64,000 bases of DNA from an uncultured Acidobacteriota bacterium (GCA_963809485.1 CAWEJX010000020.1:1152001-1216000); one strand, 5' to 3'. Shown: positions 9,865 through 45,310, counted from the first letter of the stretch. Notes: a model not told the origin generated them from the letters alone. A program made the numbers and translations.

Positions 9865-11745
9865 ATGCCGGGACGCATACGTATGAATATCGTGCTGAGC
9901 CTGTCGCTCGGGATCGCGCTCATGTTTGCGCTGATGTCGTGCAACACCGCCGGCCAGAAGCCCGCTTCAGCTCCAACCGTGGCGGACGCCGAGAAGTTCA
10001 TCGCGGATACGGAAAAACTTCTGGCGGATCTTTCGGTGAAAGCGTCCAGGGCCGCCTGGGTGCAGTCAAATTTTATAACGGATGACACCGAGGCCATCGC
10101 GGCGCAGGCAAACCAGGACTATATAGAAGCCACCACAAAAATCGCCGGAGAGGTGAAGCGCTTCGACGGCCTGAAGCTTCCGCCCGTTCTGGAACGGAAA
10201 TTCAAGCTTCTCAAATTAACACTCTTCTCTTTAAGCGACCCGGCGGAACGCGCCGAAGTGGCCAAATTGGGCACGAACCTGGAGGCGGACTACGGCAAAG
10301 GAAAAGCCTGCCCCGATTCCGGCAAATATGCGGGTAAGTGCCTGCCCATCGGCGAGGTGGAGCAGGTGCTGGCGACCAGCCGGGATCCCAACGAGATGAA
10401 AGAAATATGGAAGTCCTGGCATGCCGTCGGCGCGCCGCTGCGACAGAAGTATACGCGTTTCATCGAGCTGCAGAACAAAGGAGCCCGGGAACTGGGCTTC
10501 AGCGATATGGGGGCCATGTGGCGATCCAATTACGACATGACGCCCGAGCAGTTCAGCGCAGAGGTCGAACGGCTTTGGAATCAGGTCCGTCCCTTTTATG
10601 AGTCCCTGCACGCTTATGTGCGGTCCCGGATAGCGCGGCAATACGGCGACCAGGGCGTGACACAGGACGGCTTGATACGGGCCGACCTGCTGGGCAATCC
10701 CTGGGCGCAGGAGTGGGCGAACGTATACGGTCTGGTTGCCGCCGGCGGCGGGAATGGCGCAGGCTACGACCTGACCTCGATCCTAAAGCAGAAGAAGATC
10801 GATGAAGTGGGAATGGTGCGTTACGGGGAAGCCTTCTTCACGTCCCTGGGCTTTGCCCCGCTTCCGAAATCTTTCTATGAACGGTCTCTTTTTGTGAAAC
10901 CGCGCGACCGCGAGGTGGTGTGCCATGCCAGTGCGTGGGATGTGGACAACAAGGACGACCTGCGCCTGAAAATGTGCATCCAGATCCGAGGCGAGGATTT
11001 CGCAACCGTCCACCACGAGCTCGGCCACAACATCTATCAGCGCGCTTACAACAAGCAGCCGTTCCTTTTCCAGAACGGGGCCAACGACGGTTTCCACGAG
11101 GCCATCGGCGACACGATTGCCCTTTCGATCACTCCCGATTATCTGAAGCAGGTGGACCTGCTGCAAACCGTGCCCAAATCGGACGAGACGGCGCTGTTGC
11201 TGCGCCAGGCCATGGACAAGATTGCATTCCTCCCGTTCGGGCTGATGATCGACCAGTGGCGCTGGAAGGTGATGGACGGCACCCTGAAGCCTGCCGACTA
11301 CAACAAGGGCTGGTGGGAACTGCGTGAGAAGTATCAGGGCGTCGCACCCCCGGCTGCGCGCTCGGAAAATGATTTTGATCCGGGCGCCAAGTACCACGTC
11401 CCCGCAAACGTGCCGTACACGAGATATTTCCTGGCGCACATCCTTCAGTTCCAGTTCTATCGCGCCCTGTGCAACGAAGCCGGATACCAGGGCCCCCTGC
11501 ACCGCTGCACGTTCTACAATAACAAGCAGGCCGGAGCCAAACTCAACGCCATGCTCGAAATGGGGATGAGCCGTCCCTGGCCGGAAGCCCTGAAGGCCAT
11601 GACGGGCGAGGAGAAGATCGATGCGAGCGCTCTGCTGGAGTACTTCGCGCCGGTTCAAAAGTGGCTCGACGAGCAGAACGCGGCGGCGAACGTCAAATCC
11701 GGCTGGCAGCTGCCGGCCGACCCGCTGGCAGCGGCAGCAAAGTAG
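9865..11745 (+). CDS. M2-family peptidyl-dipeptidase A (ACE homologue), probable lipoprotein
   Basis: HHELGH and GFHEAIGD zinc motifs, CHASAWD, FDPGAKYHVP; signal with lipobox LMSC; GGAGG RBS. Confidence 0.9.
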   Translation: MPGRIRMNIVLSLSLGIALMFALMSCNTAGQKPASAPTVADAEKFIADTEKLLADLSVKASRAAWVQSNFITDDTEAIAAQANQDYIEATTKIAGEVKRFDGLKLPPVLERKFKLLKLTLFSLSDPAERAEVAKLGTNLEADYGKGKACPDSGKYAGKCLPIGEVEQVLATSRDPNEMKEIWKSWHAVGAPLRQKYTRFIELQNKGARELGFSDMGAMWRSNYDMTPEQFSAEVERLWNQVRPFYESLHAYVRSRIARQYGDQGVTQDGLIRADLLGNPWAQEWANVYGLVAAGGGNGAGYDLTSILKQKKIDEVGMVRYGEAFFTSLGFAPLPKSFYERSLFVKPRDREVVCHASAWDVDNKDDLRLKMCIQIRGEDFATVHHELGHNIYQRAYNKQPFLFQNGANDGFHEAIGDTIALSITPDYLKQVDLLQTVPKSDETALLLRQAMDKIAFLPFGLMIDQWRWKVMDGTLKPADYNKGWWELREKYQGVAPPAARSENDFDPGAKYHVPANVPYTRYFLAHILQFQFYRALCNEAGYQGPLHRCTFYNNKQAGAKLNAMLEMGMSRPWPEALKAMTGEEKIDASALLEYFAPVQKWLDEQNAAANVKSGWQLPADPLAAAAK

Positions 11746-13967: not shown

Positions 13968-15338
13968 TTAGCCGGCGAATCCGGCGGCGACATATCCGGA
14001 CATCCCGCCGGCGACACTCTTTACAACCTTGAAGCCGTTGCGCTGCAGGATGCTGGCGGCCAGACTCGACCGCATTCCCGTGCCGCAGATAAGGGCGATG
14101 TCCTTGTCCTGGGGCAGCTCCTTGTGCCGCGTGCGAAGATCCGGCGCCGGGATATTGAGAGCGCCCGGAATGCGGATACCCTGAAATTCCTCTTGGGAAC
14201 GGACATCCACGAGCACGGGGCCGCATTTCGCCTGCATCCAATGATGCAGTTCCTGCGGGCTGAGCTGCGCGACGTGTTCGGTTGGCAGCCCGGCGAGGTT
14301 CCAGCTTAGCATGCCTCCATCAAGATACGCCGTCACATTGTCGATGCCGACGCGCCTGAGCCAGACGGCGGCTTCCTGGACAACAGCCTCGCTGTCGGCA
14401 ACCAGCAAGATTTCGCCGTCAACCGGCAATGTCCAGCCGGCGAAGGTGGCGAAGTTTCCATTGATGTCGTTGCTCCACGCGCCGGGAATATGCTGGCCTC
14501 CGAACGCGTCGAACGGCCGGACATCGAGCACAACCGCGCCGGGCTTCCCGGCGCGTTCGGCAAACGCTTGCGTTGTCAGAGGCGCGGGAACGGGCAGCGT
14601 GCGCACCAGAGCCGGACCGGCGCCGTTGGTGGCGCTGCAGCGCGCAAAATGATCGGGCGCAGCCGGCATATCCGTCGTTAGAGATGCAATGAAAGAGGCC
14701 TTGTCCGGTATCTGGAGAGCCCGGTTTTTCCGGCGCTCGTAGCCGATCGTGCTGGTGCGTTTGGCACCCATGGCCCGCCCGCACAGGGAGCCGGCCCCGT
14801 GCGCCGGATACACTTCGCAGAAGTCCGGCAGCTTCAGCAGCTTCCCGTGGAGGTTGTCGAAAAGTATGGATGCGAGCTCCGCCGCCCGCCCCGGGAAAAG
14901 GTCCGGCCGCCCCACGTCGCCTACGAAGAGCGTGTCGCCGCAGAAAACGCCCACCGGTTCTTCGCCCCGTTCCCGGTCGACCACCACGTAGGAAATATGT
15001 TCGGGAGTGTGGCCGGCGGTGTCGAGAACGGAGATGCGCATGTCGTCGATGGCAAAGGAGTCGCCCTCCGCCAGCGCCACATGCCTGAAGGCGCAGTTGC
15101 CCGCCTTCGGTGCATAGATCGTGGCCCCGGTTTTCTCCGCCAGGTCCATGTGCCCCGAAATGAAATCCGCGTGCAGATGGGTTTCCAGGATGTGCGTGAT
15201 CCCGAGGTCCAGAGCCTTCGCGGCGGCGATGTAGATATCGATATCGCGCTGCGGATCGACGATCGCACAGGAGGTTGAGCCGCCCAACAGATAGGAGCTG
15301 TGTGCCAGGCCGTTCACAAAAAAATGTTGCACGAGCAT
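13968..15338 (-). CDS. MBL-fold hydrolase with two rhodanese domains (persulfide dioxygenase/sulfurtransferase-like)
   Basis: THLHADFISG, GHTPEH, GDTLFVGDVGRPDL, C-terminal CGTGMRS rhodanese loop. Confidence 0.9.
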   Translation of the reverse strand: MLVQHFFVNGLAHSSYLLGGSTSCAIVDPQRDIDIYIAAAKALDLGITHILETHLHADFISGHMDLAEKTGATIYAPKAGNCAFRHVALAEGDSFAIDDMRISVLDTAGHTPEHISYVVVDRERGEEPVGVFCGDTLFVGDVGRPDLFPGRAAELASILFDNLHGKLLKLPDFCEVYPAHGAGSLCGRAMGAKRTSTIGYERRKNRALQIPDKASFIASLTTDMPAAPDHFARCSATNGAGPALVRTLPVPAPLTTQAFAERAGKPGAVVLDVRPFDAFGGQHIPGAWSNDINGNFATFAGWTLPVDGEILLVADSEAVVQEAAVWLRRVGIDNVTAYLDGGMLSWNLAGLPTEHVAQLSPQELHHWMQAKCGPVLVDVRSQEEFQGIRIPGALNIPAPDLRTRHKELPQDKDIALICGTGMRSSLAASILQRNGFKVVKSVAGGMSGYVAAGFAG

Positions 15339-19416: not shown

Positions 19417-19812
19417 GTCAGGCACCTCCGGCAAAGCCGGAGGCTTGAAAGATTGGAACCGCTCAAAGCGGTTGGAGGAGTTACACTGGTCTTGAACGCT
19501 GACTAACGCGGGCAAAAGCCGATGAGGCGCTTCCGATCCCCGCAGGGGCCAGCGCTCGGCGCTGGTCAGTTTTCTGCGGCGGCACTGTGGCAAACGCCCG
19601 GTTTCTCATAACCTCCATCTCATTGCCGCACGGCGCTTGCCACAGTGCCGCCGCAGAAAACTCCATCGGAAGCGCCTCATCGGCTTTTGCTCGCCGACCC
19701 TCGCCGAACAAATCGGCGTTTGTCAGCGCTTTTGTCAGCGTATCTCAGCGTTTCAAAATACGGAGCTATCAAACTCCAGTAGTCACCCAGCCATGCTGGG
19801 CAATTGCCTATG
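19417..19812 (-). mobile_element. Family A IS200-derived element, copy 3 (long form; 43-bp core in opposite orientation to copies 4 and 5)
   Basis: Both end motifs plus two nested 26-bp inverted repeats (19512-19537/19665-19690 and 19568-19593/19637-19662). Confidence 0.8.
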
Positions 19813-29140: not shown

Positions 29141-29302
29141 AAAAATTGCCGGCCGGCCCGCAATAACCAACCGCATGCTTTGAGACGGCTCGGCCGAGCT
29201 GTCCCCGCCAACAGCTAAAATCACTTATCGGGAATTTGATTCGGCGGTAGAATCGCTTCTGTATAGAGGTCCGTTACAATGCCGGCTATCGGCGGAGAAG
29301 CC

Positions 29303-30976
29303 ATGCCACCGCAAAAAATATTGAGTTCCAGGCTGACGGAACAGTTCAACGCGCTCCGCGAGATCCTGAAAAGCTCCCTGTCACTGACGGAAAGACTCTC
29401 GGATAAAGACTCCTGCGCCATTCTCAGCGAACGCCTTGCGCGCCTCCAATCCGCGGCGCTCTTCGTCTTCGTCGGCGAAGTCAAATCGGGCAAAAGCAGC
29501 TTCATCAACGCCCTTCTCGGGCAGGACGTCTGCGAGGTCGCGCCCGATCCGTGCACATCCAGGATCCAGGAACTGGTTTACGGGGACGAACCCGCCACAG
29601 CGACGCTGGGTGATTACTGGGAGCGCGTCTTTCTGCCCAAGCCCGTTTTGCGGGAAATAACCATCGTGGACACTCCCGGGACCAACTCCATCATCCGCAA
29701 CCACCAGGCGATCACGGAGAACTATATCCCGCAGAGCGACCTCGTCATTTTCGTCTTTCCAGCCAAAAATCCCTACACGGGCACCTCGTGGGAGCTTCTG
29801 TCGCTCATACGGAAAGACTGGCTCCGCAAAATTGTGTTTGTCCTTCAGCAGTCGGATCTTGCGTCCGGGCACGAACTCGCCACGAACCTGGAACGCATTA
29901 AAGAATATGCGCGCGAGCGGAATGTTCAGAACCCGGTGGTGTTCACGGCATCGGCAAAGCGGGAACAGGAGGGCGCATCGGACAGCGGCTTCGCGGAGTT
30001 CCGCGAGTTCATGCGCAAGACGGTCGAGAGCGGCGATGTCTGGAAAATGAAGGTGGACGGAGCGCGCGACACGGCCCGGAAGATCGTGAGCGCATCGCTG
30101 GCTTCACTGCGGGCCGAAGAGGCCGCCGTTGCCGCGGACAGGATTTTTTACAGCGAACTGACGGCCAAAATCGAGGCTCGCAGGGAAAAGGCCCGTTCGC
30201 TGCAGCGCCTCGTCGTGGACAGCCTTGCCGCCACCTATGACCGCCTGTCCCGTTCTCTCGAGGATGATTTTGCCGAAGGGTTGGGCGCCGGCAACGTGTT
30301 GAAACGATCCATCCCCTTTCTGCGCGACAAAGATATCAAAACGTGGCTGAAGGATCTTCAGTCGCAGTTTGAGAAGAGAGCCAGGGAGGAAATCGACGCC
30401 GAATCGCTCCGGGTATCGAAGGACCTCACCGATGAAATGCAGACGATGCTGGACGAACTTGTCCAGGCGGTGGGGCGCCGTCAGAAGGAAGGCGAGGCGA
30501 GCGCGCTTTCTCGAATCTCCGGCCGCTCGGAAGTGCTGGAGCGCCTGCAATCCAGGCTCAAGGAACTGCGCATAGCGGACATCGTGGGAGACAAGGGGAT
30601 TCAGGGATCGAACCTGGGGATGCTCACGCTGGCCGGCGGCGGCATAGCGGCCCTAGGAACCGTCATCGCGCTGGCGACCCACATGATGGTAGTGGATATA
30701 ACCGGCGGCGTCATCGCCACCCTCGGCATCGGCATTATAGCGCTGGCCTTGCTCTGGAAGCGCTCCGGCATACTCTCTGAATTCCGCCGCAAGATGGCGA
30801 AATCGCGCGAAGAGTTCCGGGACAGGCTGAACCAGGAGATCACCCAGATATTCGAGAAGCTCTTTCTGGAGATCGAGCAGCAGGTCAAGGAACCGCTTGC
30901 CCGCCTGGACAAGCAGGCCGCCCATCTATCCGCCCTGACCTCCGAAGCCCGCCGAATAATGGAGAAATTGGTCTAA
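29303..30976 (+). CDS. Bacterial dynamin-like GTPase with C-terminal membrane hairpin
   Basis: G1 GEVKSGKS, G3 DTPG, long helical stalk, two hydrophobic helices. Confidence 0.82.
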   Translation: MPPQKILSSRLTEQFNALREILKSSLSLTERLSDKDSCAILSERLARLQSAALFVFVGEVKSGKSSFINALLGQDVCEVAPDPCTSRIQELVYGDEPATATLGDYWERVFLPKPVLREITIVDTPGTNSIIRNHQAITENYIPQSDLVIFVFPAKNPYTGTSWELLSLIRKDWLRKIVFVLQQSDLASGHELATNLERIKEYARERNVQNPVVFTASAKREQEGASDSGFAEFREFMRKTVESGDVWKMKVDGARDTARKIVSASLASLRAEEAAVAADRIFYSELTAKIEARREKARSLQRLVVDSLAATYDRLSRSLEDDFAEGLGAGNVLKRSIPFLRDKDIKTWLKDLQSQFEKRAREEIDAESLRVSKDLTDEMQTMLDELVQAVGRRQKEGEASALSRISGRSEVLERLQSRLKELRIADIVGDKGIQGSNLGMLTLAGGGIAALGTVIALATHMMVVDITGGVIATLGIGIIALALLWKRSGILSEFRRKMAKSREEFRDRLNQEITQIFEKLFLEIEQQVKEPLARLDKQAAHLSALTSEARRIMEKLV

Positions 30977-31033: not shown

Positions 31034-31432
31034 GTCAGGTACCTCCGGCAAAGCCGGAGGCTTGAAAGATTGGAACCGCTCAAAGCGGTTGGAGGAGTTA
31101 CGCCGGTCTTGAACGCTGACTTACGCGGGCAAAAGCCGATGAGGCGCTTCCGATCCCCGCAGGGGCCAGCGCTCCGCGCTGGACAGTTTTCTGCGGCGGC
31201 ACTGTGGCAAGCGCCGTGCGGCAAGCAGATGAAGGGTATGAGAAACCGGGCGTTTGCCACAGTGCCGCCGCAGAAAACTCCATCGGAAGCGCCTCATCGG
31301 CTTTTGCTCGCCGACCCTCGCCGAACAAATCGGCGTTTGTCAGCGCTTCTATCAGCGTTTCTCAGCGTTTCAAAATACGGAGCTGTCAAACTCTTTGAGT
31401 CTCCCAGCAGAGCCGGGGATTTACCAATGTAA
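31034..31432 (-). mobile_element. Family A IS200-derived element, copy 4 (long form)
   Basis: Both end hairpins; inner inverted repeats 31185-31210/31254-31279 around a 43-bp core. Confidence 0.8.
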
Positions 31433-33503: not shown

Positions 33504-33604
33504 CTTGCTCGAAGATCCCAAATTTTTCTGTTAAATTCAGTGTCACAAAAGGGGGGACTGAAGTCATATCCCGTTGAGTGTCAAAAAACCCAAGGAGATC
33601 GGAT

Positions 33605-35944
33605 ATGACAACCGCAAAAGCTTTACCCCGGACCGGCACATACCGTAACGTCGGCCTCGTGTCCGTCGACGGGCGCACGTATCCTCTCAAATCCGCAATC
33701 ATAGGCGCCCGGGCCGAGGGCGGCATCGCCGCCACGACTCTGAGCCAGGCCTATGAAAACCCTTACGCCGAAGCTTTGGAGGTGCTCTACACCCTGCCCC
33801 TCCCGGCGGACGCGGCAGTCACCGGGTATACCGTGCGTCTTGGAAAACGTGTGATACGGGGTGAGGTGCGCACGCGCGACGAAGCGCGGGAAGAATACCG
33901 CAAAGCCCTTTTCGAAGGACGCACCGCCGCCCTGCTCGAGCAGGAGCGGGCCGATACTTTCTCTCAGCGGCTCGGCAGCCTTCCGCCCGGCGAAACGGCG
34001 ACGATTGAAATCGAGGTGCTGCAGCCGCTGACGTTTCTGCCGGGCACCCGGAGCGGACAGTCCGGCTGGGAGTACCGCTTCCCCACCGTGGTTGGCGTGC
34101 GCTACGAAGGCGGGGAAAACCGCGTCCCGGATGCCGAAAAGCTCGACGTCAGCCGGGCCTCGAACGGAACGCCGCTGAGCCTTACGGCGAGCCTGCGGAT
34201 TGCAGACGGTCCCGCCGAAGCGGTTCAGCCTCGTTCCCCGGAACAGCGCATTCGCGTCCAGGCAGACGGGCAGGGAACCCTCGTGATGCTCGAAGATGGA
34301 ATGCGTCTCGACCGCGATCTTGTAATACGCTGGCTAACCGGGAAACAGGAAACCGGCTTGCGCGTGGCCGAGGGAAAGGGGCTTCCGTGCGACGGCGGCC
34401 GCTATATCCTGATCACCCTGACTCCTCCGTCCACAACCGGCCAGGCGATTCCCCGCGATCTCACGCTGCTGATCGACGCCAGCGGATCGATGTCGGGCCA
34501 ACCGCTCGAACAGGCCAAAACGGTTGCCGTGGAGCTCCTGCGCAGCCTTGACCCGGGCGACCGCTTCGAAATCCTGGCGTTTGCAGACAAGGTCCGCCGG
34601 CTGGCTGCCGGCTCCGAGGACACTAAAAACATCGACCGCGCCTGCCGGGAACTGCGCAAGCTGAAGGCGTCGGGCGCGACTGAAATGACAAAAGCCCTGA
34701 TCGAAGCTCTGAAGCCGCTGCGCAAGGGCTCGCAAAGGCAGGTTATACTGCTGTCGGACGGCTATATCGGCTTTGAGCAGGAAGTCGTCGGCGAAATCGC
34801 GCGCAGGCTCGCCCCGGGCACGAGGGTCCACGCCGTGGGAGTGGGATCCTCGCCGAACCGTACGCTGACGCGGGGCGCCGCACGCGCCGGCCGCGGGACC
34901 GAAATCGTTATCGGCCTGGAAGACGACGCCCGGCAGGCAGCCGAGAGGCTCCTTCAGGCTACCGTTCGCCCCGTGTTGACGGACATACGGATTCAGGGCC
35001 CGGCTCTGATGAGCTGTGCACCGCAGAAACCGCGCGATGTGCTCGCGGGCCTGCCGGCGCTGATCTTCGCGGAGGTTAAGGACCAAGGGGGACGCCTGGA
35101 AATCAGCGGCAGGATGGCAGGCAATGCTCCGGGCTGGACTGAATTTGTGGAGATTCCGCCGGCGAAACGCTTCTCTCCGGAAGCGACGGCAATAGAATCA
35201 ACACCTATACCAATCGGGGCGCTGTTCGGCCGGGAAGCCATAGAGGATGCTGAAATCGATCTTGCTGCCGCAGGCAGCGGGCGACCGGGCGAGATCGACA
35301 AAATCATCGAGCGCCTCGGGCTGAGGCACGGCATATCGAGCCGCATGACGAGCCTGGTCGCCATTTCGGAAGACCCGACGGTCGATCCCAGAAATCCGCG
35401 CCGGCGCGAAAGGCTGCCGGTGGAAGTACCCTGGGGGATTTCGGCCGAAAACGCGGGACTAAGCCCCATCACGACTGCTTTGGAGGATATGGCCGCTCCC
35501 TTAATGCTATCGGAACCCCGGATCCGCCCGGCACGGGGCATGTTCAGAAAGGTAAGAGAATCCGCCATGCAATTCGACAGATCTCGGTTTTCACGCGCCA
35601 TAACCGTCGATAGGGCGCGCGTGTTGCACATTGACGGCCCGACCCTGGTCTTCGAATTTGAAGCGCCGGTGGACGGATTTATTCTGCCGGACGATTACAC
35701 AACGATTATGGTCACCTTTAACGACGGCGCGGAAACGTGCGTCGCCGAGGTGGTTGCGGCTGAAAGCAGCGGGCCGGGGCCGTATGCGGCCGGGCTGACT
35801 ATCCGCCTGGCCCTGCGGCTGGAAGGCCGCGCAAACTGGAACCACGAGGCTGCTTCAATTCACTGGCGCGTTCAGCCTTTGCCGGGAGTGCCAATGGCCG
35901 GCGTCGAAGTGAACGTGCATTTCCTGCTGGGGACCGATGTATGA
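33605..35944 (+). CDS. VIT plus vWA domain protein (inter-alpha-trypsin-inhibitor/PARP4-like architecture) with extra C-terminal beta domain
   Basis: VIT: Y.NP...LE..Y.LPLP.DAAV; vWA MIDAS DASGSMSG, GATEM, LLSDG; SRMTSLVAISE; AAGGAG RBS. Confidence 0.88.
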   Translation: MTTAKALPRTGTYRNVGLVSVDGRTYPLKSAIIGARAEGGIAATTLSQAYENPYAEALEVLYTLPLPADAAVTGYTVRLGKRVIRGEVRTRDEAREEYRKALFEGRTAALLEQERADTFSQRLGSLPPGETATIEIEVLQPLTFLPGTRSGQSGWEYRFPTVVGVRYEGGENRVPDAEKLDVSRASNGTPLSLTASLRIADGPAEAVQPRSPEQRIRVQADGQGTLVMLEDGMRLDRDLVIRWLTGKQETGLRVAEGKGLPCDGGRYILITLTPPSTTGQAIPRDLTLLIDASGSMSGQPLEQAKTVAVELLRSLDPGDRFEILAFADKVRRLAAGSEDTKNIDRACRELRKLKASGATEMTKALIEALKPLRKGSQRQVILLSDGYIGFEQEVVGEIARRLAPGTRVHAVGVGSSPNRTLTRGAARAGRGTEIVIGLEDDARQAAERLLQATVRPVLTDIRIQGPALMSCAPQKPRDVLAGLPALIFAEVKDQGGRLEISGRMAGNAPGWTEFVEIPPAKRFSPEATAIESTPIPIGALFGREAIEDAEIDLAAAGSGRPGEIDKIIERLGLRHGISSRMTSLVAISEDPTVDPRNPRRRERLPVEVPWGISAENAGLSPITTALEDMAAPLMLSEPRIRPARGMFRKVRESAMQFDRSRFSRAITVDRARVLHIDGPTLVFEFEAPVDGFILPDDYTTIMVTFNDGAETCVAEVVAAESSGPGPYAAGLTIRLALRLEGRANWNHEAASIHWRVQPLPGVPMAGVEVNVHFLLGTDV

Positions 35945-36545
35945 AGGGCAGTTGCCTATGACCGGCGGCAATCCTTCAGAAAAGCTCGAGACGGCTTTCC
36001 GGCGCACCGGATACGGCGACGCGGATGCGTTTGCGGAGTGGATGGGGATGGTGGAGCATCCGCTCCGCCGCAGCCTGAGCCGTTTCGCGCGCGCCGTCGA
36101 CGTAGAGGCGGTCGTCCAGGAGACTTGCATGCGCATGTGGCTTTTCGCATCCGATCCGCAAAACAGCCTTCAGGGCCAGAACGCCTCCCTGCGCTTTGCG
36201 CTTGGCGTAGCCCGCAATGTCGCGCTCGAAGAGGTGCGGAATGCGCATCTCGAGCAGCTTGTCGGTCTCGAGAACCTTGAGCAGATGCCGGAAGGCAGCT
36301 TCACCCCGGCGATGCCGGACCCGGCTTTGGCCAAGGCAATTGCCGATTGTGTCGGCCGGCTGCCGAAACAGCCTCATGTGGTTTTGACCGCGCGCATCAA
36401 TGACGGCCACCTGCCGGACAGGGACCTGGCCCGGGGAGTCAGGATGAAGCTGAACACATTTTTGCAAAACATTGTCCGCGCGCGCCGTCTGGTTACGGAC
36501 TGTCTCGAAAAGCGGGGAGTCCGTCTCGGGGAGATGTTGCCATGA
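35937..36545 (+). CDS. ECF-type sigma factor (divergent)
   Basis: GDADAF, DVEAVVQETCMRMW, VARNVALEE, C..RLP, HTH ..LNTFLQNIVRARR; overlaps upstream stop. Confidence 0.75.
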   Translation: MYEGQLPMTGGNPSEKLETAFRRTGYGDADAFAEWMGMVEHPLRRSLSRFARAVDVEAVVQETCMRMWLFASDPQNSLQGQNASLRFALGVARNVALEEVRNAHLEQLVGLENLEQMPEGSFTPAMPDPALAKAIADCVGRLPKQPHVVLTARINDGHLPDRDLARGVRMKLNTFLQNIVRARRLVTDCLEKRGVRLGEMLP

Positions 36546-36772
36546 GACATAATCCGGAAGAAATCCTGATGGAGGAAGCCGTCTCCGCTTACCGCGGCCG
36601 GACGGCCTCGGGGCGCATCCTACCCTCACCGGCCTGGCAGGACCTCACGCCGGAATCCAGGGAGCGGCTTTTCGAAAGGCAACTTCAGAGCCGCCTTATC
36701 GAGCGCGCTTTGTCTCCCGGCGGCATGAGCGCCACCGTCCGCGCCGTTCTCCACCGCCTGCAAACTTCTTAA
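36542..36772 (+). CDS. 76-aa hypothetical protein, possible anti-sigma or sigma partner
   Basis: ATGA overlap with sigma stop, GGGGAG RBS, helical amphipathic sequence. Confidence 0.65.
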   Translation: MRHNPEEILMEEAVSAYRGRTASGRILPSPAWQDLTPESRERLFERQLQSRLIERALSPGGMSATVRAVLHRLQTS

Positions 36773-36872
36773 CGCTGACAGACGCCGACAAAACAGGACA
36801 CACGCTGACCTCAAAATAATATATATTTGGTTCAGCGTTCGTCAGCGGGTGTCAGCGTGCGTCAGCGTTAAA
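36769..36872. repeat. Palindromic mini-element of two opposed decamer arrays bounded by TTAA
   Basis: TTAACGCTGAC...x4, AT-rich centre, x4...GTCAGCGTTAA. Confidence 0.75.
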
Positions 36873-36895
36873 CCGATCCAATTTCGAAGGGACAC

Positions 36896-38749
36896 ATGGA
36901 TCAATATCGCAATGCTCTGAAGGTTTCCATCGAAGTGGCGCGTGAGGCTGGGGAAATACTGCGCGAGGAATTTCATCGGACCGGCGGCCCCATCGGCAGC
37001 GCGCATCACGCCGAAGCCGACGACAGGGCGGAGGCGCACATCCGCAAACGCCTGCTGGCCGCGGAACCCTGGAGCTACCTCGGCGAGGAAACCGGCGCGG
37101 AACTGCGGGACTCGGAGCATCTGTGGCTGGTGGATCCCAACGACGGGACGGCCGCATACATGAAAGGCCGCCGCGCCAGCGCCGTGTCGATTGCCGCCCT
37201 GCGCGACGGCATGCCGGTCCTGGGTGTGGTGTACGCCTTTGGTTACCCCGACGACGACGGCGACCTCATCGCCTGGGCCGAAGGCTGCGGGCCGGTAACC
37301 CGCAACGGTCTCCCCGTTGAACCTCTTCCGGGCGGTGCAAAGCTCGACAAAAACACTGTAGTGCTGGTATCCCAGGACGCCGCCCGCCATCCGCAGGCTA
37401 ACGCCGTGTGCGTCAAACCATCGCGGTTTTTCTCCATCCCGAGCATCGCTTACCGGCTGGCGCTGGTCGCGGTCGGCGAAGGGGTCGCCGCTGTTTCGCT
37501 GAACTCGCCGCAAAGCTGGGATTACGGCGCCGCGCACGCGTTGATACGGGGCGCTGGCGGAGTGTTTGTCGACGAGAAGGGCAGTCCCATCACCTACAGC
37601 CGTGACGGCCTGAGCCATGCAAGGGACTGCTTTGGAGGAGGGGCTGCCGCGGTAAAGGAATTGTTGAACCGGTCGTGGGGCAAGGTATCCGGCCGATCCC
37701 ATCCTGATGACGGATCGATTTTCGGCCTTATAAAGCCGTCACCCGGCCGTACGGTCCGGGACGCCCGGCTCCTGGCACGGGCGCAGGGCTGCCTTTTGGG
37801 TCAGTTGACCGGCGATGCGCTGGGCTCGCAGGTTGAATTTCAGAGTGCGGAGTGGATCCGGTCGCGCTACCCCGGCGGCGTGCGCGAACTCGAGGACGGC
37901 GGGTATTTCAACACGCTGGGCGGCCAGCCGACAGACGATTCGGAAATGGCGCTGATGCTTGCCCGCTGCCTCGCGCGCGACGGCCGATACCACGCCGGGG
38001 TGGTGCTCGAGGCTTACGTGCACTGGCTGGAGAGTTCCCCGTATGATTTTGGCAGCACCACGGTCAAAGCGCTGGGCGAGGCGCGAAGAGGCAGGAAGCG
38101 GGAAGAACGTCTGATTCTCGCGGAGCGCTCCGCGTCGCAGCAGAGCCAGGCCAACGGTTCCCTGATGCGCGTCAGTCCCCTGGCAATCTTCGGCTGGTCG
38201 AGGCCGGACGAAGCCGTGGAGTGGGCGCGCCTTGACAGCGGGCTGACGCACCCGAATCCTGTCTGCCGCGAATCCTGTGCGGCGTATGTTCGCGCGGTCA
38301 CCGCCGCATTGAATGGAGCGGACGCGCAATCTTGTTACGAGGCAGCGCTGGGAGAAATCCGGAAAGGCGGACCGGAAAGTGTGATCAAGGCTCTCGAGAG
38401 CGCCGCAATTCAGCCGCCGCGGCAGATGGGGGGTTCAGCGGCCGGCTGGGTATTGATCGCGTTGCAGAATGCATTTTATCGCCTGCTCCATGCTGAGTCT
38501 TTTGAGGAAGCGCTGGTGGAAACGGTAGGGCGCGGCGGCGATACGGACACGAATGCCGCGATTTGCGGCGCATTGCTCGGCGCGCTTCACGGCCGAAACT
38601 CAATCCCGTCCCGCTGGCGCCGGCGCGTCCTCACCTGCCGCCCGATGGCGGAGGCCGGCGCCCATCACCCCCGTCCGGTCGACTTCTGGCCCGTCGACGC
38701 ACTCGACCTCGCCGAATCTCTCCTGCTGGCTGCGGACTCATCCGCTTAG
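36896..38749 (+). CDS. Inositol-monophosphatase-family / ADP-ribosylglycohydrolase fusion protein
   Basis: IMPase motifs GEE, WLVDPNDGT, WDYGAA; ARH motifs GDALG, PTDDSEMA, NGSLMR, GGDTDTNAAI. Confidence 0.9.
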   Translation: MDQYRNALKVSIEVAREAGEILREEFHRTGGPIGSAHHAEADDRAEAHIRKRLLAAEPWSYLGEETGAELRDSEHLWLVDPNDGTAAYMKGRRASAVSIAALRDGMPVLGVVYAFGYPDDDGDLIAWAEGCGPVTRNGLPVEPLPGGAKLDKNTVVLVSQDAARHPQANAVCVKPSRFFSIPSIAYRLALVAVGEGVAAVSLNSPQSWDYGAAHALIRGAGGVFVDEKGSPITYSRDGLSHARDCFGGGAAAVKELLNRSWGKVSGRSHPDDGSIFGLIKPSPGRTVRDARLLARAQGCLLGQLTGDALGSQVEFQSAEWIRSRYPGGVRELEDGGYFNTLGGQPTDDSEMALMLARCLARDGRYHAGVVLEAYVHWLESSPYDFGSTTVKALGEARRGRKREERLILAERSASQQSQANGSLMRVSPLAIFGWSRPDEAVEWARLDSGLTHPNPVCRESCAAYVRAVTAALNGADAQSCYEAALGEIRKGGPESVIKALESAAIQPPRQMGGSAAGWVLIALQNAFYRLLHAESFEEALVETVGRGGDTDTNAAICGALLGALHGRNSIPSRWRRRVLTCRPMAEAGAHHPRPVDFWPVDALDLAESLLLAADSSA

Positions 38750-38750
38750 G

Positions 38751-39145
38751 GTCAGGTACCTCCGGCAAAGCCGGAGGCAAGATTTGAACCGCTCAAAGCG
38801 GTTGGACTAGTTACGCCGGTCTTGAACGCTGACTTACGCGGGCAAAAGCCGATGAGGCGCTTCCCATCCCCGCAGGGGCCAGCGCTCCGCGCTGGACAGT
38901 TTTCTGCGGCGGCACTGTGGCAAGCGCCGTGCGGCAAATAGATGAAGGGTATGAGAAACCGGGCGTTTGCCACAGTGCCGCCGCAGAAAACTCCATCGGA
39001 AGCGCCTCATCGGCTTTTGCTCGCCGACCCTCGCCGAACAAATCGGCGTTTGTCAGCGCTTTAATCGGCGTTTCTCAGCGTTTCAAAATACGGAGCTGTC
39101 AAACTCTTTGAGTTCCCCGGCAGAGCCGGGGGTTTACCAATGTAA
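38751..39145 (-). mobile_element. Family A IS200-derived element, copy 5 (long form), starting 2 bp after the ARH stop
   Basis: Both end hairpins; inner inverted repeats 38898-38923/38967-38992. Confidence 0.8.
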
Positions 39146-39440
39146 TTATGCTTGATTATGGCGGTCAGCCTGCCGACCCTCCCCAACCAGACTGCGCCAA
39201 ATCCCCGTTTCCGGTTTTATCGGGGCCGTCGTAAGGCCGCTTCGAAGGCCGCGCCTCATTAAATCTGACAAAATGCTTCCAAAACTGCGCGGTTGAGTCG
39301 ATGAGAGACATGAGGCAGCACAGGAGACAAAATGCGTTGTCATCCGTGTGGCGCGGAGGTGTTACATTACTTTACCGGGGAAAAGAGAAACTCAAAAGCC
39401 GTGGCAGTATGAGATCGCAAGGCTGTTTCGGATCAAAGAT

Positions 39441-41087
39441 ATGAAAAATAGCCAGGCGCCGAAACCCGGCCTATACCCGCCCAACAAGCCGCGCGTGACC
39501 CCTTCGCGTGCCGAGCATGCGGTCTATGAGGCGCTCTCGAGCCATATGCCGCAGGGCTGGTATGCCTGGCATTCCCTGCGCATACGCGTCCCCGGCCACC
39601 CCGATGCCGAAGCCGATTTCCTCATTGCCGACCCCAAACAGGGGATCCTTATCCTGGAGGTCAAGGGCGGCCGGATCGAGCAGCGCGACGGGATGTGGTT
39701 TTCCAACGGAGAATCCCTCAAGCATGCGCCGCGGGAACAGGCGAACCGGTTTCTTCGCGAGCTGGTGGAGCTGCTCAAATCCCAGAATATCAACCCTCCG
39801 CCCTGCGGGATCGCCACCTGCTTCCCCGACACCGAGTTCAGCGCAGGGCCCAGCGAGGGAGATTTAGCGGACTGTGTCCTCGGATCGCAGGACCTGCGCT
39901 GGGTGGAAGAGGCGCTCCCCACGATCATGGAATGCGCCCTCGCCGAGGGCTACAAGCCCAAAGGAAATTGGATTCAGGCGGTCCACCGGCTTTGGGGAGA
40001 AGTGTGGACACCCCGCCTGGATTTCGGTCTGCAGGCCCGTATCCAAAAGGACGAGAGGATTCGCCTGGACGGGGAGCAGTTCAAAGCCCTGCATGGGCTG
40101 ATCGATAACAAGTCGGTCCTGGTGCTTGGAGGAGCCGGCACCGGCAAGACCGCACTTGCGGCAGCCCTGGCTCAAAAACTGGCCGGAAGCGGGAAAAAAG
40201 TTCTGATGCTCTGCTTCACCGAAGCCCTGGCCCAATGGCTTGCGGGCCAGATGCGTAGCGAAAACCTGGAGGTGTGGGCGCTCAAGCGCTATGCCGTTGA
40301 GCTGCTCCGGCTGTCGGGCAAGGAAGTGATGGCCGAGGAATCGCAGGCGTTCTGGCGCGATGTATCCCTGGAGGCAGCCCTCGACGCTTTGCCCTCGCTG
40401 CCGCTATCCTGGGATGCGCTCATAGTCGACGAAAGCCAGGACCTGGAGGAAAACGACTGGGCCCTTGTCGCGGAGCTCTCCAAAAACAAAACGCTGTGGG
40501 CTTTCTGGGACCCGGAGCAGGCTTTCTGGCAGGACCGGAAGGTTCGCGAGGAGCTCTTCGGAACGCGGTTCAGGCTTCAGACTCGGTACCGCTGCCCCGA
40601 AGGGGTGATGCTCCTGGCGGGATGCTACATCGGGAAAGAGGCAGACGCGGGCGCTCTTCTCCGGACCATCGATCCGGATGTTCTTTCACTGCGGTCCTGT
40701 CCCGGCCCGGGAGCCGTGCTGGATCAGATTTCCTACGAAATCGACAGGCTGGAGGGTTCCGGGCTGGGGGCGTCCGACATCGCGGTTTTATCTTTGAGGG
40801 GCGCAGGGGAGCTCGGCTCGATCGTGCACCACAACCGCATAGGGACGCACAGGCTTGTGCGGGCCGACCATCCCGACGCATCTTCCAATGTGGTTGTGGA
40901 GACGTTCCTGCGCTTCAAGGGCCTCGAGCGGCCGGCCATCATTGTCACGGACGTCAGTCTTGCTCTCGACAAGCCCGACTATGCCCGGCGCATGTATATT
41001 GCCCTCACCCGTTCCCTCTCGACTGTCCGCATCATCGACGCCGCCGCCTATCTCTCGAGAGACCCAATCCTCAAACCGCTGCTGTAA
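39441..41087 (+). CDS. NERD (PD-(D/E)xK) nuclease fused to SF1/UvrD-like helicase
   Basis: EADFLI...LEVKGG; Walker A GGAGTGKT; LIVDESQD; FKGLERP; YIALTRS. Confidence 0.88.
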   Translation: MKNSQAPKPGLYPPNKPRVTPSRAEHAVYEALSSHMPQGWYAWHSLRIRVPGHPDAEADFLIADPKQGILILEVKGGRIEQRDGMWFSNGESLKHAPREQANRFLRELVELLKSQNINPPPCGIATCFPDTEFSAGPSEGDLADCVLGSQDLRWVEEALPTIMECALAEGYKPKGNWIQAVHRLWGEVWTPRLDFGLQARIQKDERIRLDGEQFKALHGLIDNKSVLVLGGAGTGKTALAAALAQKLAGSGKKVLMLCFTEALAQWLAGQMRSENLEVWALKRYAVELLRLSGKEVMAEESQAFWRDVSLEAALDALPSLPLSWDALIVDESQDLEENDWALVAELSKNKTLWAFWDPEQAFWQDRKVREELFGTRFRLQTRYRCPEGVMLLAGCYIGKEADAGALLRTIDPDVLSLRSCPGPGAVLDQISYEIDRLEGSGLGASDIAVLSLRGAGELGSIVHHNRIGTHRLVRADHPDASSNVVVETFLRFKGLERPAIIVTDVSLALDKPDYARRMYIALTRSLSTVRIIDAAAYLSRDPILKPLL

Positions 41088-42795: not shown

Positions 42796-43188
42796 TCAGG
42801 ACTCTGGATTTTGCCAATAAGGAGCCCGGGCGCGGATGACCCACCGTATGCCGCCGCGCGCGTCCTCGACATCGCCGGAGTATCTCGGGATAACGTGCAG
42901 ATGAGCGTGCGGGATCGTCTGCCCGCCCGCCTCGCCGATATTGACGCCGATGTTGTACCCGTCGGGCGTATGATCCTTTTCGATATTCTTCCGCACCGGA
43001 TCTACCAAAGCCCAAACGGCCGCCTGCTCCTCCTGAGTCAGGGCCAGGTAATCGGCAATATGCCTGCGCGGCACAATCAGTGTATGGCCAGGGTTTACAG
43101 GATAGTTATCGAATAGCGCAACAGCAAGGTCATTGCTGATAATGATCTCGGATCTGGCAATTCTGCTGCAAAAGGGGCAATCAGTCAT
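42796..43188 (-). CDS. HIT-family nucleotide hydrolase
   Basis: CPFC, PVNPGHTLIVPRRH, GQTIPHAHLHVIPR. Confidence 0.9.
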   Translation of the reverse strand: MTDCPFCSRIARSEIIISNDLAVALFDNYPVNPGHTLIVPRRHIADYLALTQEEQAAVWALVDPVRKNIEKDHTPDGYNIGVNIGEAGGQTIPHAHLHVIPRYSGDVEDARGGIRWVIRARAPYWQNPES

Positions 43189-43249
43189 TTCAGCTTGCAT
43201 TCCGGGATTTACACCAATCATTTCATTGCGCCCGAGTCTGAGATTTAGG

Positions 43250-43545
43250 TTAATCCTGACTGGCAATTTCCATCGCTGCTGATTTTAGCCGCACGAAAAG
43301 CGACGCTGGCTTTATCACTCGAACTCCGGGACCGAAGCCCAATGGCATCTGGCACGGGAGATTCGTAACCGTCAGCGCAAGGATCCGGTCCACCGCAAAC
43401 ATGCGGACCTCGCGCCGCATGTGGCAATAGCCGATCAGGTACAGCGCACCGGCGGCATACCAGATGCGGTACGGGTCCACTTTTCGCCTCGAGGTCTTAT
43501 CCCGCGCCGCCGCATAATAGCGCATCTCCACCGTGCGCTTCTTCG
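43250..43545 (-). pseudogene. WYL-domain regulator remnant (lacks HTH; WYL joined directly to WCX tail)
   Basis: TVEMRY...RKVDPYRIWY..GALYLIGYCHMRREVRMFAVDRI (WYL) then LGFGPGVRVIKPASL (WCX end). Confidence 0.75.
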
Positions 43546-43640: not shown

Positions 43641-43840
43641 GTTCTAAACTATACACCGTATGTCAGAAAATCATCAATTCCCTCATCGAAACATAATTCC
43701 ATTTTCTTTCGAAAGATTGATGCCGGATGGCATATTGCCGCTGTAATGGCGTTGTGGGATTCTTACAATGCGTTGCTTCATGAGGGCCAAGAGGGCATTC
43801 TCAAAAGCGCAAAGACTCAAGGCTTTCGGGAGGAGTGGAT

Positions 43841-45310
43841 ATGCCGAAACATCTGCTGACCAAGACTGCGTTTGTTAGCGGGCTCAACTGCGAAAGGTAT
43901 CTCTGGGTCTACGTAAACGACCGGGAACGGCTGCCTGAACCTGATGAATCCACTCAGGCGTTGTTCGACCAGGGGCACGAGATCGGAGACCTGGCCAAAT
44001 CACTCTACCCCGATGGTATCGAGATCGACTGGGATTCCGGCCACGACGCCGGCATCGCCCAGACCAGGGAAGCAGTCCGCCGGCGAAAACCGATCTTCGA
44101 GGCGGGATTTCAGGACGGAATGACACACGCGCGCGCCGACATCCTCAACCCGGCCGCAGCCGGGAAATGGGACCTGATCGAGGTCAAGAGCTCCACCCAG
44201 GTCAAGGAAGAGCACCTCGACGACGTCGCATTCCAGAAGCACCTGTACGAAGCCGCGGGAATCCCCATCAGCCGCTGCTTCGTCATGCACGTGGACCGGA
44301 GCTACGTGCGAAGAGGAGAACCGGATGCGCGCAGACTCCTCGTGACCGAGGACGTAACCGCCAATATCGAGCCGCTGGCCGCCGGATTGCAGGACAAAAT
44401 AAGGAGACAGCTCGCGGTCATATCCCTGCCGGCTCCCCCCGACGCGGAGATCGGCAAGAAATGCGACGGCTGCGAGCTTCACGACGAATGCTGGTCGTTT
44501 CTGCCCGGGCGTCACGTCTTCCACCTGTATTATCCCGGCGGGAAACCTCGGGAACTGCTGGATCGGAATATCCTGGCTCTTAAGGACATCCCCGATGGCT
44601 ATCCCCTGTCGGTCAAACAGTCCATCCAGGTCGCATGCGAGAAGACCGGGGAGCCGTATGTCGAGCCTCTGGGAATCCGGGCGTTTCTCGCGCAGCTGAG
44701 ATACCCGCTATGTTTCCTCGACTTCGAAACCTTCATGACCGCCGTCCCGGCATACGACGAATTGAGTCCGTACGAACCGGTGCCGTTTCAATATTCGCTG
44801 CACGTGGTTACCTTCCCTGGACGTAAAGCGCAACACTACGCCTATCTTTCAGACGGGAAAACCGATCCCAGGCCCGAAGTCCTGGAAGGGCTGAAAAAGA
44901 ATCTCGGGCGCCTGGGATCGATTGTCGCGTACAACGCGTCGTTCGAAATCAACGTGTTAAGGTCCTGTGCGCGGCGCTTCCCTGCGTATCAAGCCTGGTA
45001 TGATTCCATCCAGCTGCGCTTCGTGGACCTGATCCGGCCATTCCGCGATTTTCACTACTACCACCCCGACCAGCTCGGCAGCGCTTCGCTGAAGGCCGTC
45101 CTGCCTGCCTTGACGGGAGTGGGTTACACGGGACTCGAAATCGCCGAGGGCGGCGAGGCAAGCCTCAGGTTCCGCGAAATGGCTTTCGGGAATGCGACGG
45201 AAGCAAGGAAGAAGGAAATCCGGGAAGCGCTGGAGACCTACTGCTGCCAGGACACCGAGGGGATGGTGCGCATCCTTGATGCACTGCGGCGGCTGAAAAA
45301 AAGGCGATGA
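43841..45310 (+). CDS. DUF2779 protein: Cas4/RecB-like PD-(D/E)xK nuclease plus RNase H-like domain
   Basis: GLNC, RADIL...LIEVKSST, CDGCELHDEC, FLDFET, YNASFE, YCCQDT. Confidence 0.85.
   Translation: MPKHLLTKTAFVSGLNCERYLWVYVNDRERLPEPDESTQALFDQGHEIGDLAKSLYPDGIEIDWDSGHDAGIAQTREAVRRRKPIFEAGFQDGMTHARADILNPAAAGKWDLIEVKSSTQVKEEHLDDVAFQKHLYEAAGIPISRCFVMHVDRSYVRRGEPDARRLLVTEDVTANIEPLAAGLQDKIRRQLAVISLPAPPDAEIGKKCDGCELHDECWSFLPGRHVFHLYYPGGKPRELLDRNILALKDIPDGYPLSVKQSIQVACEKTGEPYVEPLGIRAFLAQLRYPLCFLDFETFMTAVPAYDELSPYEPVPFQYSLHVVTFPGRKAQHYAYLSDGKTDPRPEVLEGLKKNLGRLGSIVAYNASFEINVLRSCARRFPAYQAWYDSIQLRFVDLIRPFRDFHYYHPDQLGSASLKAVLPALTGVGYTGLEIAEGGEASLRFREMAFGNATEARKKEIREALETYCCQDTEGMVRILDALRRLKKRR

Follow-up and report, generated by a model that had tools for sequence, protein, structure and literature searches.

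Within a 64-kb window of Acidobacteriota DNA (GCA_963809485.1 CAWEJX010000020.1:1152001-1216000; the window is this whole stretch, and positions are counted from its first letter), the first three genes of a feature at 33605..38749 form a strongly conserved extracytoplasmic function (ECF) sigma factor module found in at least six phyla. The module encodes a VIT-vWA protein resembling the ITIH proteins, a divergent ECF sigma factor, and a soluble protein of 76 amino acids (aa). The first-pass annotation had read the feature as a four-gene unit ending in an IMPase-ADP-ribosylglycohydrolase (IMPase-ARH) fusion, perhaps extended by a NERD helicase as a fifth member, that would respond to ADP-ribosylation. 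Because only the triad recurs across loci, the co-occurrence test refutes genes four and five, not the first three. We lean, on balance, toward the triad being a self-contained, autoregulated, and wholly cytoplasmic ECF sigma operon.

Loci were gathered with a sigma alignment search, taking one genome per species, which returned 64. Two of these, from Prevotella (L063 and L064, 26 to 28% identity), encode unrelated sigma factors and were left out; the co-occurrence counts refer to the remaining 62. Where a locus left at least 2.4 kb on the upstream side (48 loci), the gene directly upstream of sigma always encoded VIT-vWA; where it extended far enough downstream (59 loci), the gene directly following sigma was always the small one. 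The 46 loci long enough at both ends all held the complete triad in the same order. By label, the 62 loci belong to Eisenbacteria (17 loci), Acidobacteriota (16), Gemmatimonadota (6), Myxococcota or 'delta proteobacterium' (6), Planctomycetota (4, including the isolate Saltatorellus ferox Poly30), and Limnocylindria (1), with three further loci from metagenome-assembled genomes (MAGs) labeled alphaproteobacterial and nine unclassified. All-against-all clustering of every open reading frame (ORF) of at least 70 aa revealed no other gene common to the loci, and the remaining large clusters were antisense shadow ORFs within the three genes. The best non-module cluster, drawn from six loci, consisted of generic Ser/Thr kinases at varying positions and was rejected as a shared fourth gene. 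The two nearest downstream ORFs (93 in total, leaving out the window, L001, and L002) were mixed in kind and often convergent, and most neighbors of the triad were housekeeping or metabolic genes. Hence, co-occurrence upheld the proposed unit for its first three genes and not for IMPase-ARH, which adjoins the triad only in the closest relatives.

Two MAGs each appear to carry two differing copies of the module (L002 and L010, whose sigmas are 84% and 58% identical to that of the window, respectively; L054 and L061), which suggests paralogous triads within a genome. S. ferox encodes, 3 kb past its triad on the downstream side, a second VIT-vWA paralog with a signal peptide-like N-terminus (L048, 13488-15620). 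In L003, part of the small protein (residues 1-47) is matched a second time, at 64% identity, 3.7 kb downstream of the triad (14479-14619).

In the window, all four annotated ORFs were confirmed to be co-directional on the + strand. The VIT-vWA gene (33605..35944, 779 aa) was taken to start at the ATG behind an AAGGAG site, while the longest ORF opens at GTG 33578 (788 aa); Pfam places VIT at residues 39-146 (1.4e-28) and VWA at residues 294-441 (2.3e-14) of this 788-aa ORF, the domain pair that had been predicted for the first gene. The sigma ORF is 195 to 202 aa long depending on its start codon, either ATG 35958 or ATG 35937. We favored the former (35958..36545), 13 nucleotides (nt) past the VIT-vWA stop, because the family length is 195 aa. 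The small gene (36542..36772, + strand) shares an ATGA overlap with the sigma stop codon at 36542-36545. Accordingly, the claim that the first three genes are joined by overlapping codons applies to the sigma and small genes, and to the VIT-vWA and sigma genes only if sigma starts at ATG 35937. As expected for a soluble system lacking a membrane anti-sigma, no 19-residue segment reached a Kyte-Doolittle value of 1.6 in 40 VIT-vWA, 30 sigma, and 64 small-protein sequences, and neither transmembrane segments nor signal peptides are present in the three proteins.

Family length and profile matches identify the second gene product as a divergent ECF (group 4) sigma-70 factor, in line with its original annotation. 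The sigma factor in the window gave no Pfam match at E ≤ 0.01, reaching Sigma70_r2 at E 0.026; among 30 relatives, 13 matched Sigma70_r2 and 11 matched Sigma70_r4_2. We recovered 357 relatives at E ≤ 1e-3, mostly of 195 aa, and the family profile matched SigL (2.7e-7, residues 37-188), sigmaE (4.8e-5), and also SigW in the PDB. All NCBIfam ECF models scored under their cut-offs on the window sigma, with TIGR02989 coming first (6.3e-13). In the region of sigma-4, the cysteines C131 and C182 were invariant in 30 sequences and could form a redox or metal site.

An ECF-type promoter (33541..33568, + strand), composed of a -35 element TGTCAC, a 16-nt spacer, and a -10-like element GTCATA, lies 64 nt 5' of the VIT-vWA start. 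The strict pattern, TGTCAC-N15-18-([GT][AT]CAT[AG]|CGTTG), was present in 34 of 40 aligned VIT-vWA upstream regions, with near variants in the other six. The window contained a single match, at 33541, against a shuffle mean of 0.29. Across 862,142 bp of loci there were 40 matches, every one just 5' of a VIT-vWA gene: 33 before aligned VIT-vWA starts and 7 before the VIT-vWA genes of loci outside the alignment. Downstream of the -10-like element, a T and a G at 7 and 8 nt were kept in 32/33 and 28/33 sequences, respectively. Conserved -35 and -10 elements ~16-17 nt apart are what is expected of an ECF promoter, and, because motif and module are co-conserved, we infer that the module sigma reads this TGTCAC-N15-18-GACATA or CGTTG motif. 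According to the available portion of the supplement of PMC7826278, the ECF41 motif comprises a -35 element TGTCACA and a -10 element CGTC, with similar -35 elements in ECF103 and ECF288. In a set of 17 long leaders from the Eisenbacteria and Gemmatimonadota group (L012-L054), CCGG-N7-8-CCGG was also kept, ~40-60 nt 5' of the VIT-vWA start. Its four potential base pairs are nearly invariant and showed no covariation across the 17 leaders; the element may act as an operator or form a small hairpin.

The 76-aa ORF proved to be a genuine gene that is conserved, as first proposed. Its family comprised 118 representatives at E ≤ 1e-3, nearly all of 70 to 100 aa, and the sigma stop and small-protein start overlapped as ATGA in 56 of 58 loci. 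Only two residues, R18 and D34, are invariant. Pfam, NCBIfam, and PADLOC scans gave no match to the small protein, a protein atlas search returned unnamed clusters only, and the S. ferox homolog is annotated as hypothetical. Five of the 118 representatives (P0126, P0136, P0216, P0228, and P0230) were natural sigma-small fusions. The junction linkers of three of these (P0216, P0228, and P0230) hold no Met, which argues for real fusions rather than simple slips at the ATGA overlap. The AlphaFold2 model of P0126 was compact, with a predicted local distance difference test (pLDDT) value of 90.7 and a predicted template modeling score (pTM) of 0.87. Together with the ATGA coupling and the natural fusions, this model is indirect evidence for a small protein that would bind sigma and probably inhibit it.

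The small-protein profile (residues 4-57, 36551-36712) also weakly matched, at E 6.9e-4 and over 54 residues, the full length of one FF domain in human TCERG1, and none of 64 members matched the Pfam FF model at E ≤ 10.

The first protein of the module has the architecture of the ITIH proteins, namely VIT at the N-terminus and then a vWA domain that holds a complete MIDAS (metal ion-dependent adhesion site; DxSxS, T, D). The MIDAS residues D291, S293, S295, T359, and D385 were invariant in 40 sequences. The AlphaFold2 model (pLDDT 83.2, pTM 0.85) opened with a VIT sandwich and the vWA domain, continued through a beta domain and a helical hairpin, and, past a disordered stretch at 618-660, ended in a further beta domain (~665-775). 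Conservation extends to around residue 620, followed by a variable linker and then a moderately conserved C-terminal domain, for which an atlas search with residues 655-779 gave no usable match. Foldseek ranked ITIH1 first (6fpz_A, E 7.9e-31, 619 columns), with the archaeal cytoplasmic vWA regulator ArnB among the next matches, whereas the family profile placed PARP4 first (4.7e-49), then ITIH4 and ITIH1. No signal peptide was found, N-termini beginning 15 to 25 residues before the VIT domain.

Right past the ITIH-like core and before the disordered linker lies an invariant V593-D594-P595, followed by a conserved Arg-rich stretch and SAEGxGL (residues 593-619, ~35381-35461). Its position recalls ITIH pro-domain removal; equivalence with the ITIH processing site was not established, the profile alignment to ITIH stopping at the TSLVA strand, and no paper was found for the ITIH motif DPHFII. 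In the available sections of PMC7170535, the MIDAS of ITIH1 mediates protein binding and the C-terminal pro-domain is lost.

In the operon that we favor, the sigma factor would transcribe its own genes from TGTCAC-N16-GTCATA. The 76-aa protein, made 1:1 with sigma, would bind it and most likely keep it inactive, making it a new kind of small soluble anti-sigma that resembles a split-off regulatory C-terminal extension. The ITIH-like protein would provide the input, its MIDAS binding an acidic ligand (a protein or peptide) and relaying this event to the sigma-small pair. This relay is the weakest step, and we put forward the input role tentatively. A complex prediction of VIT-vWA, Mg, and the small protein scored 0.00 relative to a mark of 0.32, which counts neither for nor against binding.

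Several points weigh against this interpretation. Nearly all members come from MAGs. The small protein has no recognizable anti-sigma domain and no conserved Cys/His motif, and it could equally be an activating cofactor. Some of the sigma-small fusions could be frameshift artifacts. The P0126 fold was predicted without a control, and the alignment misplaced the last 35 residues of stand-alone sigmas. Foldseek matches of its sigma part, the best being ECF sigmas solved with anti-sigmas (1or7_A top, probability 1.00, E 8.1e-3), were weak by E-value, with none at E ≤ 0.001. Furthermore, the current data do not favor VIT-vWA as input over output, and none of the loci had an extra promoter copy within 10 kb, in keeping with an output role.

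In such an output role, sigma and the small protein would control chiefly or only the gene before them, and the ITIH-like protein would execute the response, perhaps through its MIDAS, which might bind or cross-link a cytoplasmic target. Along with the lack of further promoter copies, this is consistent with VIT-vWA standing first after the single copy and having a strong AAGGAG site for ribosome binding, and with the TGTCACA -35 type shared with ECF41, whose members, in the part of the PMC7826278 supplement available, control themselves and the -1 gene. However, a mere target is not expected to accompany its regulators in every one of 48 loci from different phyla, and the sensing of a signal would fall to sigma itself or to a 76-aa protein without cofactor-binding residues. 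We therefore regard an output role as a credible, if somewhat unlikely, alternative.

It appears rather unlikely that the small protein is instead a positive cofactor, a detached C-terminal extension needed for the folding or activity of sigma. Natural fusions do carry it as an extension of the C-terminus, ECF41 and ECF42 need parts of their extensions for activity (PMC8999054, in the sections available), and strict 1:1 coupling would suit an obligate subunit. Nevertheless, a positively autoregulated sigma factor with an activator alone would have no off switch, and small partners co-encoded with ECF sigmas are usually inhibitors, as a matter of general knowledge and in the available sections of PMC8999054.

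An unlikely elaboration of the favored autoregulated operon is that an integrin/ITIH-like MIDAS receptor captures or releases the novel 75-aa (possibly FF-like) sigma-binding protein on ligand binding, thereby switching on its own operon, which would make the triad a new class of cytoplasmic ECF signaling. Prior self-processing at the invariant Asp594-Pro595 is a possible variant of this mechanism, by analogy with ITIH heavy chains, which shed their pro-domain.

We compared the module with described ECF systems. Like ECF41 (SigJ, Ecf41), it is cytoplasmic and lacks a membrane anti-sigma, and the similarity extends to a -35 TGTCACA with a CGTC-like -10, to the control, predicted here, of sigma itself and the gene at -1, and to a putative regulatory domain at the sigma C-terminus, as in the natural fusions. 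Unlike ECF41, which carries a fused SnoaL-like extension of ~120 aa, the module pairs a 195-aa sigma with a stand-alone helical protein of ~75 aa, neither of which matches SnoaL, and its -1 gene encodes the ITIH-like VIT-vWA protein. In ECF226, ECF289, and ECF255, an ECF sigma is likewise found beside a vWA protein proposed to take part in regulation (Casas-Pastor 2021, as far as the available part of the source goes). There, however, the vWA-DUF3520 proteins of ECF226 and ECF289 are single-pass membrane anti-sigmas at +1, while ECF255 has a soluble or secreted vWA-DUF3520 protein at -1 and a membrane anti-sigma at +1. In contrast, the vWA protein of the triad is at -1 and soluble, contains VIT, and shows neither DUF3520 nor a transmembrane helix, and the +1 gene encodes the 76-aa soluble protein.

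In the available part of Casas-Pastor 2021 supplementary file 1, vWA was listed only with DUF3520 proteins (ECF226, ECF289, ECF255, ECF35, and ECF28), and VIT did not appear beyond 'in vitro' in the reference list. The main text mentioned von Willebrand once and VIT not at all, and there was no mention of vWA in the available sections of a review of noncanonical ECF sigmas (PMC8999054). No described group fits the module in that text and the available supplement, which agrees with the first-pass view that the layout had not been described; nor did we find a description of the VIT-vWA/sigma/small triad in the full-text literature searched.

The small soluble protein encoded with an ECF sigma also recalls the EcfG-NepR-PhyR partner switch and other soluble anti-sigmas, in which a third soluble protein could titrate the small one (PMC8999054, available sections). 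Unlike PhyR-type systems, VIT-vWA has no sigma-like or receiver domain, and no signature of NepR, zinc-associated anti-sigma (ZAS), or other anti-sigma families was detectable in the small protein, the ZAS zinc motif HxxxCxxC being absent. By way of working, ECF41 would be closest, together with systems built on soluble anti-sigmas or partner switches, although the features that define ECF41, ECF226/289, and ZAS membership are lacking.

The VIT-vWA region itself shares with ITIH1, ITIH4, and PARP4 the VIT, vWA, and hybrid-like architecture and the complete MIDAS, and its C-terminal part beyond the core occupies the position of the ITIH pro-domain. ITIH proteins, however, are secreted eukaryotic matrix proteins, whereas the bacterial protein, at 14 to 15% identity, has no signal for secretion and is linked with a sigma factor. 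Among NCBIfam models, VIT-vWA best matched TIGR03788, the marine proteobacterial sortase target, over residues 46-628. Its score of 317.5 was below the cut-off of 551.65, the bacterial protein lacks the signal peptide, the transmembrane segment, and the hydrophobic C-terminal segment of a sorting signal, and the C-terminal 150 aa differ.

We also considered whether the triad serves as the sensing part of a conflict or defense system and tends to lie in defense islands. A DUF2779 (Cas4-like) gene occurs 0 to 7 kb downstream of the triad in the window (43835-45310) and in 4 of 62 loci (L001; L033, 10371-11846; L042, 1300-4631; L056, 13075-14832), that of L042 adjoining a NERD helicase that resembles the window's own. 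A LeoA-like dynamin GTPase (29279-30976, PADLOC 1e-17) and a ThsC-like HIT protein (42796-43266, 4.5e-13) are encoded in the wider neighborhood within the window. Against this, PADLOC 2.0 returned no family at E ≤ 0.01 for any of the three triad proteins or for IMPase-ARH, only 7 of 105 flanking ORFs matched PADLOC at E ≤ 1e-8, four of them generic Ser/Thr kinases, and the housekeeping or metabolic genes described above make up most of the neighborhood. No module promoter preceded DUF2779, the NERD helicase, or IMPase-ARH. A role in defense is accordingly very improbable. By a rough estimate, made with no computed background, the recurrence of DUF2779 is commoner than expected for a rare gene.

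Beyond the small gene, the window continues with IMPase-ARH, a repeat element, and the NERD helicase, none of which belongs to the system; they are neighbors local to this Acidobacteriota lineage. The IMPase-ARH gene (36896..38749, + strand, 617 aa) lies 123 nt past the small gene, on the same strand, in both the window and L002, and the domain fusion assigned to it was confirmed by Pfam (Inositol_P, residues 6-239; ADP_ribosyl_GH, residues 298-573). The latter domain is full length (PF03747, 1.3e-66, profile 1-287 of 287). IMPase-ARH was rejected as DraG itself, with a TIGR02662 score of 156.4, under the cut-off of 337.05. A full, adjacent IMPase-ARH gene was found in none of 47 loci with at least 2 kb downstream; the gene adjoins the triad only in L002 (84% sigma identity), where the contig ends inside it, and in L001 (92% sigma identity), where a remnant persists. 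There (10809-11326, compared with 36772-39348 of the window), only IMPase-ARH codons 529-617 (89 codons) are left, abutting the small-protein stop, and both triad and helicase are intact: IMPase-ARH has recently been lost beside an intact triad. Elsewhere, neither ADP_ribosyl_GH nor Inositol_P was present in any of the 93 downstream ORFs, and L038 has, at a distance of 5 kb, a gene with ARH alone.

Searches with IMPase-ARH gave 2955 matches at E ≤ 1e-3 among 8000 scored, with both domains in all 120 of the matches listed, and labeled members included Acidobacteriota, Planctomycetota lineages (Gemmataceae and Pirellulales), Sorangium, and Byssovorax. Judged by these matches, it is a widespread fusion family that occurs in genomes on its own.

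Two unstranded palindromic features flank the IMPase-ARH gene. The first (36769..36871), an imperfect palindrome of GTCAGCG-type repeats with 50-nt arms that are 70% complementary (inverted repeat I1), separates it from the small gene, is also found in L002, and is a boundary between the operon and the next gene. The second (38750..39143, ~395 bp; nested inverted repeats I2 and I3) is a non-coding, MITE (miniature inverted-repeat transposable element)-like palindromic repeat element that sits after the IMPase-ARH stop and is absent from L001. The 'mobile insertion' annotated before the helicase is therefore an inserted element, missing in L001, in the form of a non-coding palindromic repeat rather than a transposase-bearing element. 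Its core occurs three times in the window (19574-19656, 31191-31273, and 38904), and these intergenic palindromes are a non-coding element family of the MITE or repetitive extragenic palindromic (REP) kind. GTCAGCG-N3-GTCAGCG, allowing up to two mismatches, occurs 32 times in the window, with 0.72 expected.

The NERD and UvrD-like helicase gene (39441..41087, + strand; Pfam NERD 4.7e-11 and AAA_19; PADLOC RTasNERD-Hel 5e-30) is indeed present ~0.6 kb past the IMPase-ARH gene; its ORF is open from GTG 39348, and the L001 homolog starts at the ATG equivalent to 39441. A helicase of this kind was adjacent in only 2 of 62 loci, and its proposed fifth membership was abandoned.

The circuit first suggested, in which four or five genes would sense ADP-ribosylation, IMPase-ARH would remove the modification, and the helicase would be a further member, drew on the same-strand position of IMPase-ARH and on VIT plus vWA being the domain pair of PARP4, the top match of the family profile, and is scarcely credible given that IMPase-ARH is not conserved beside the triad, has no module promoter, is separated by a palindrome, and is widespread on its own, that the L001 triad persists without it, and that a Pfam scan of the cluster revealed no ADP-ribosyltransferase. 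An ADP-ribosylation-sensing operon is not supported by the evidence here.

ECF sigma factors are among the most abundant signaling devices of bacteria, and the groups that lack a membrane anti-sigma are the least understood. The triad adds a clean new case, with an invariable gene order and coupling and its own promoter, from mostly uncultured but abundant soil and sediment phyla, in which both partner families of the sigma factor, VIT-vWA and the small protein, are of uncharacterized function. It offers a new putative family of small sigma-binding proteins, together with a sigma/promoter pair whose recognizable motif may be of use in synthetic circuits, and it places the VIT-vWA architecture of ITIH and PARP4 in the bacterial cytoplasm, where genetics could address its function. 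If the MIDAS receptor mechanism were true, an adhesion-type, metal-dependent recognition module of eukaryotic matrix and immune proteins would enter the control of bacterial transcription in at least six phyla.

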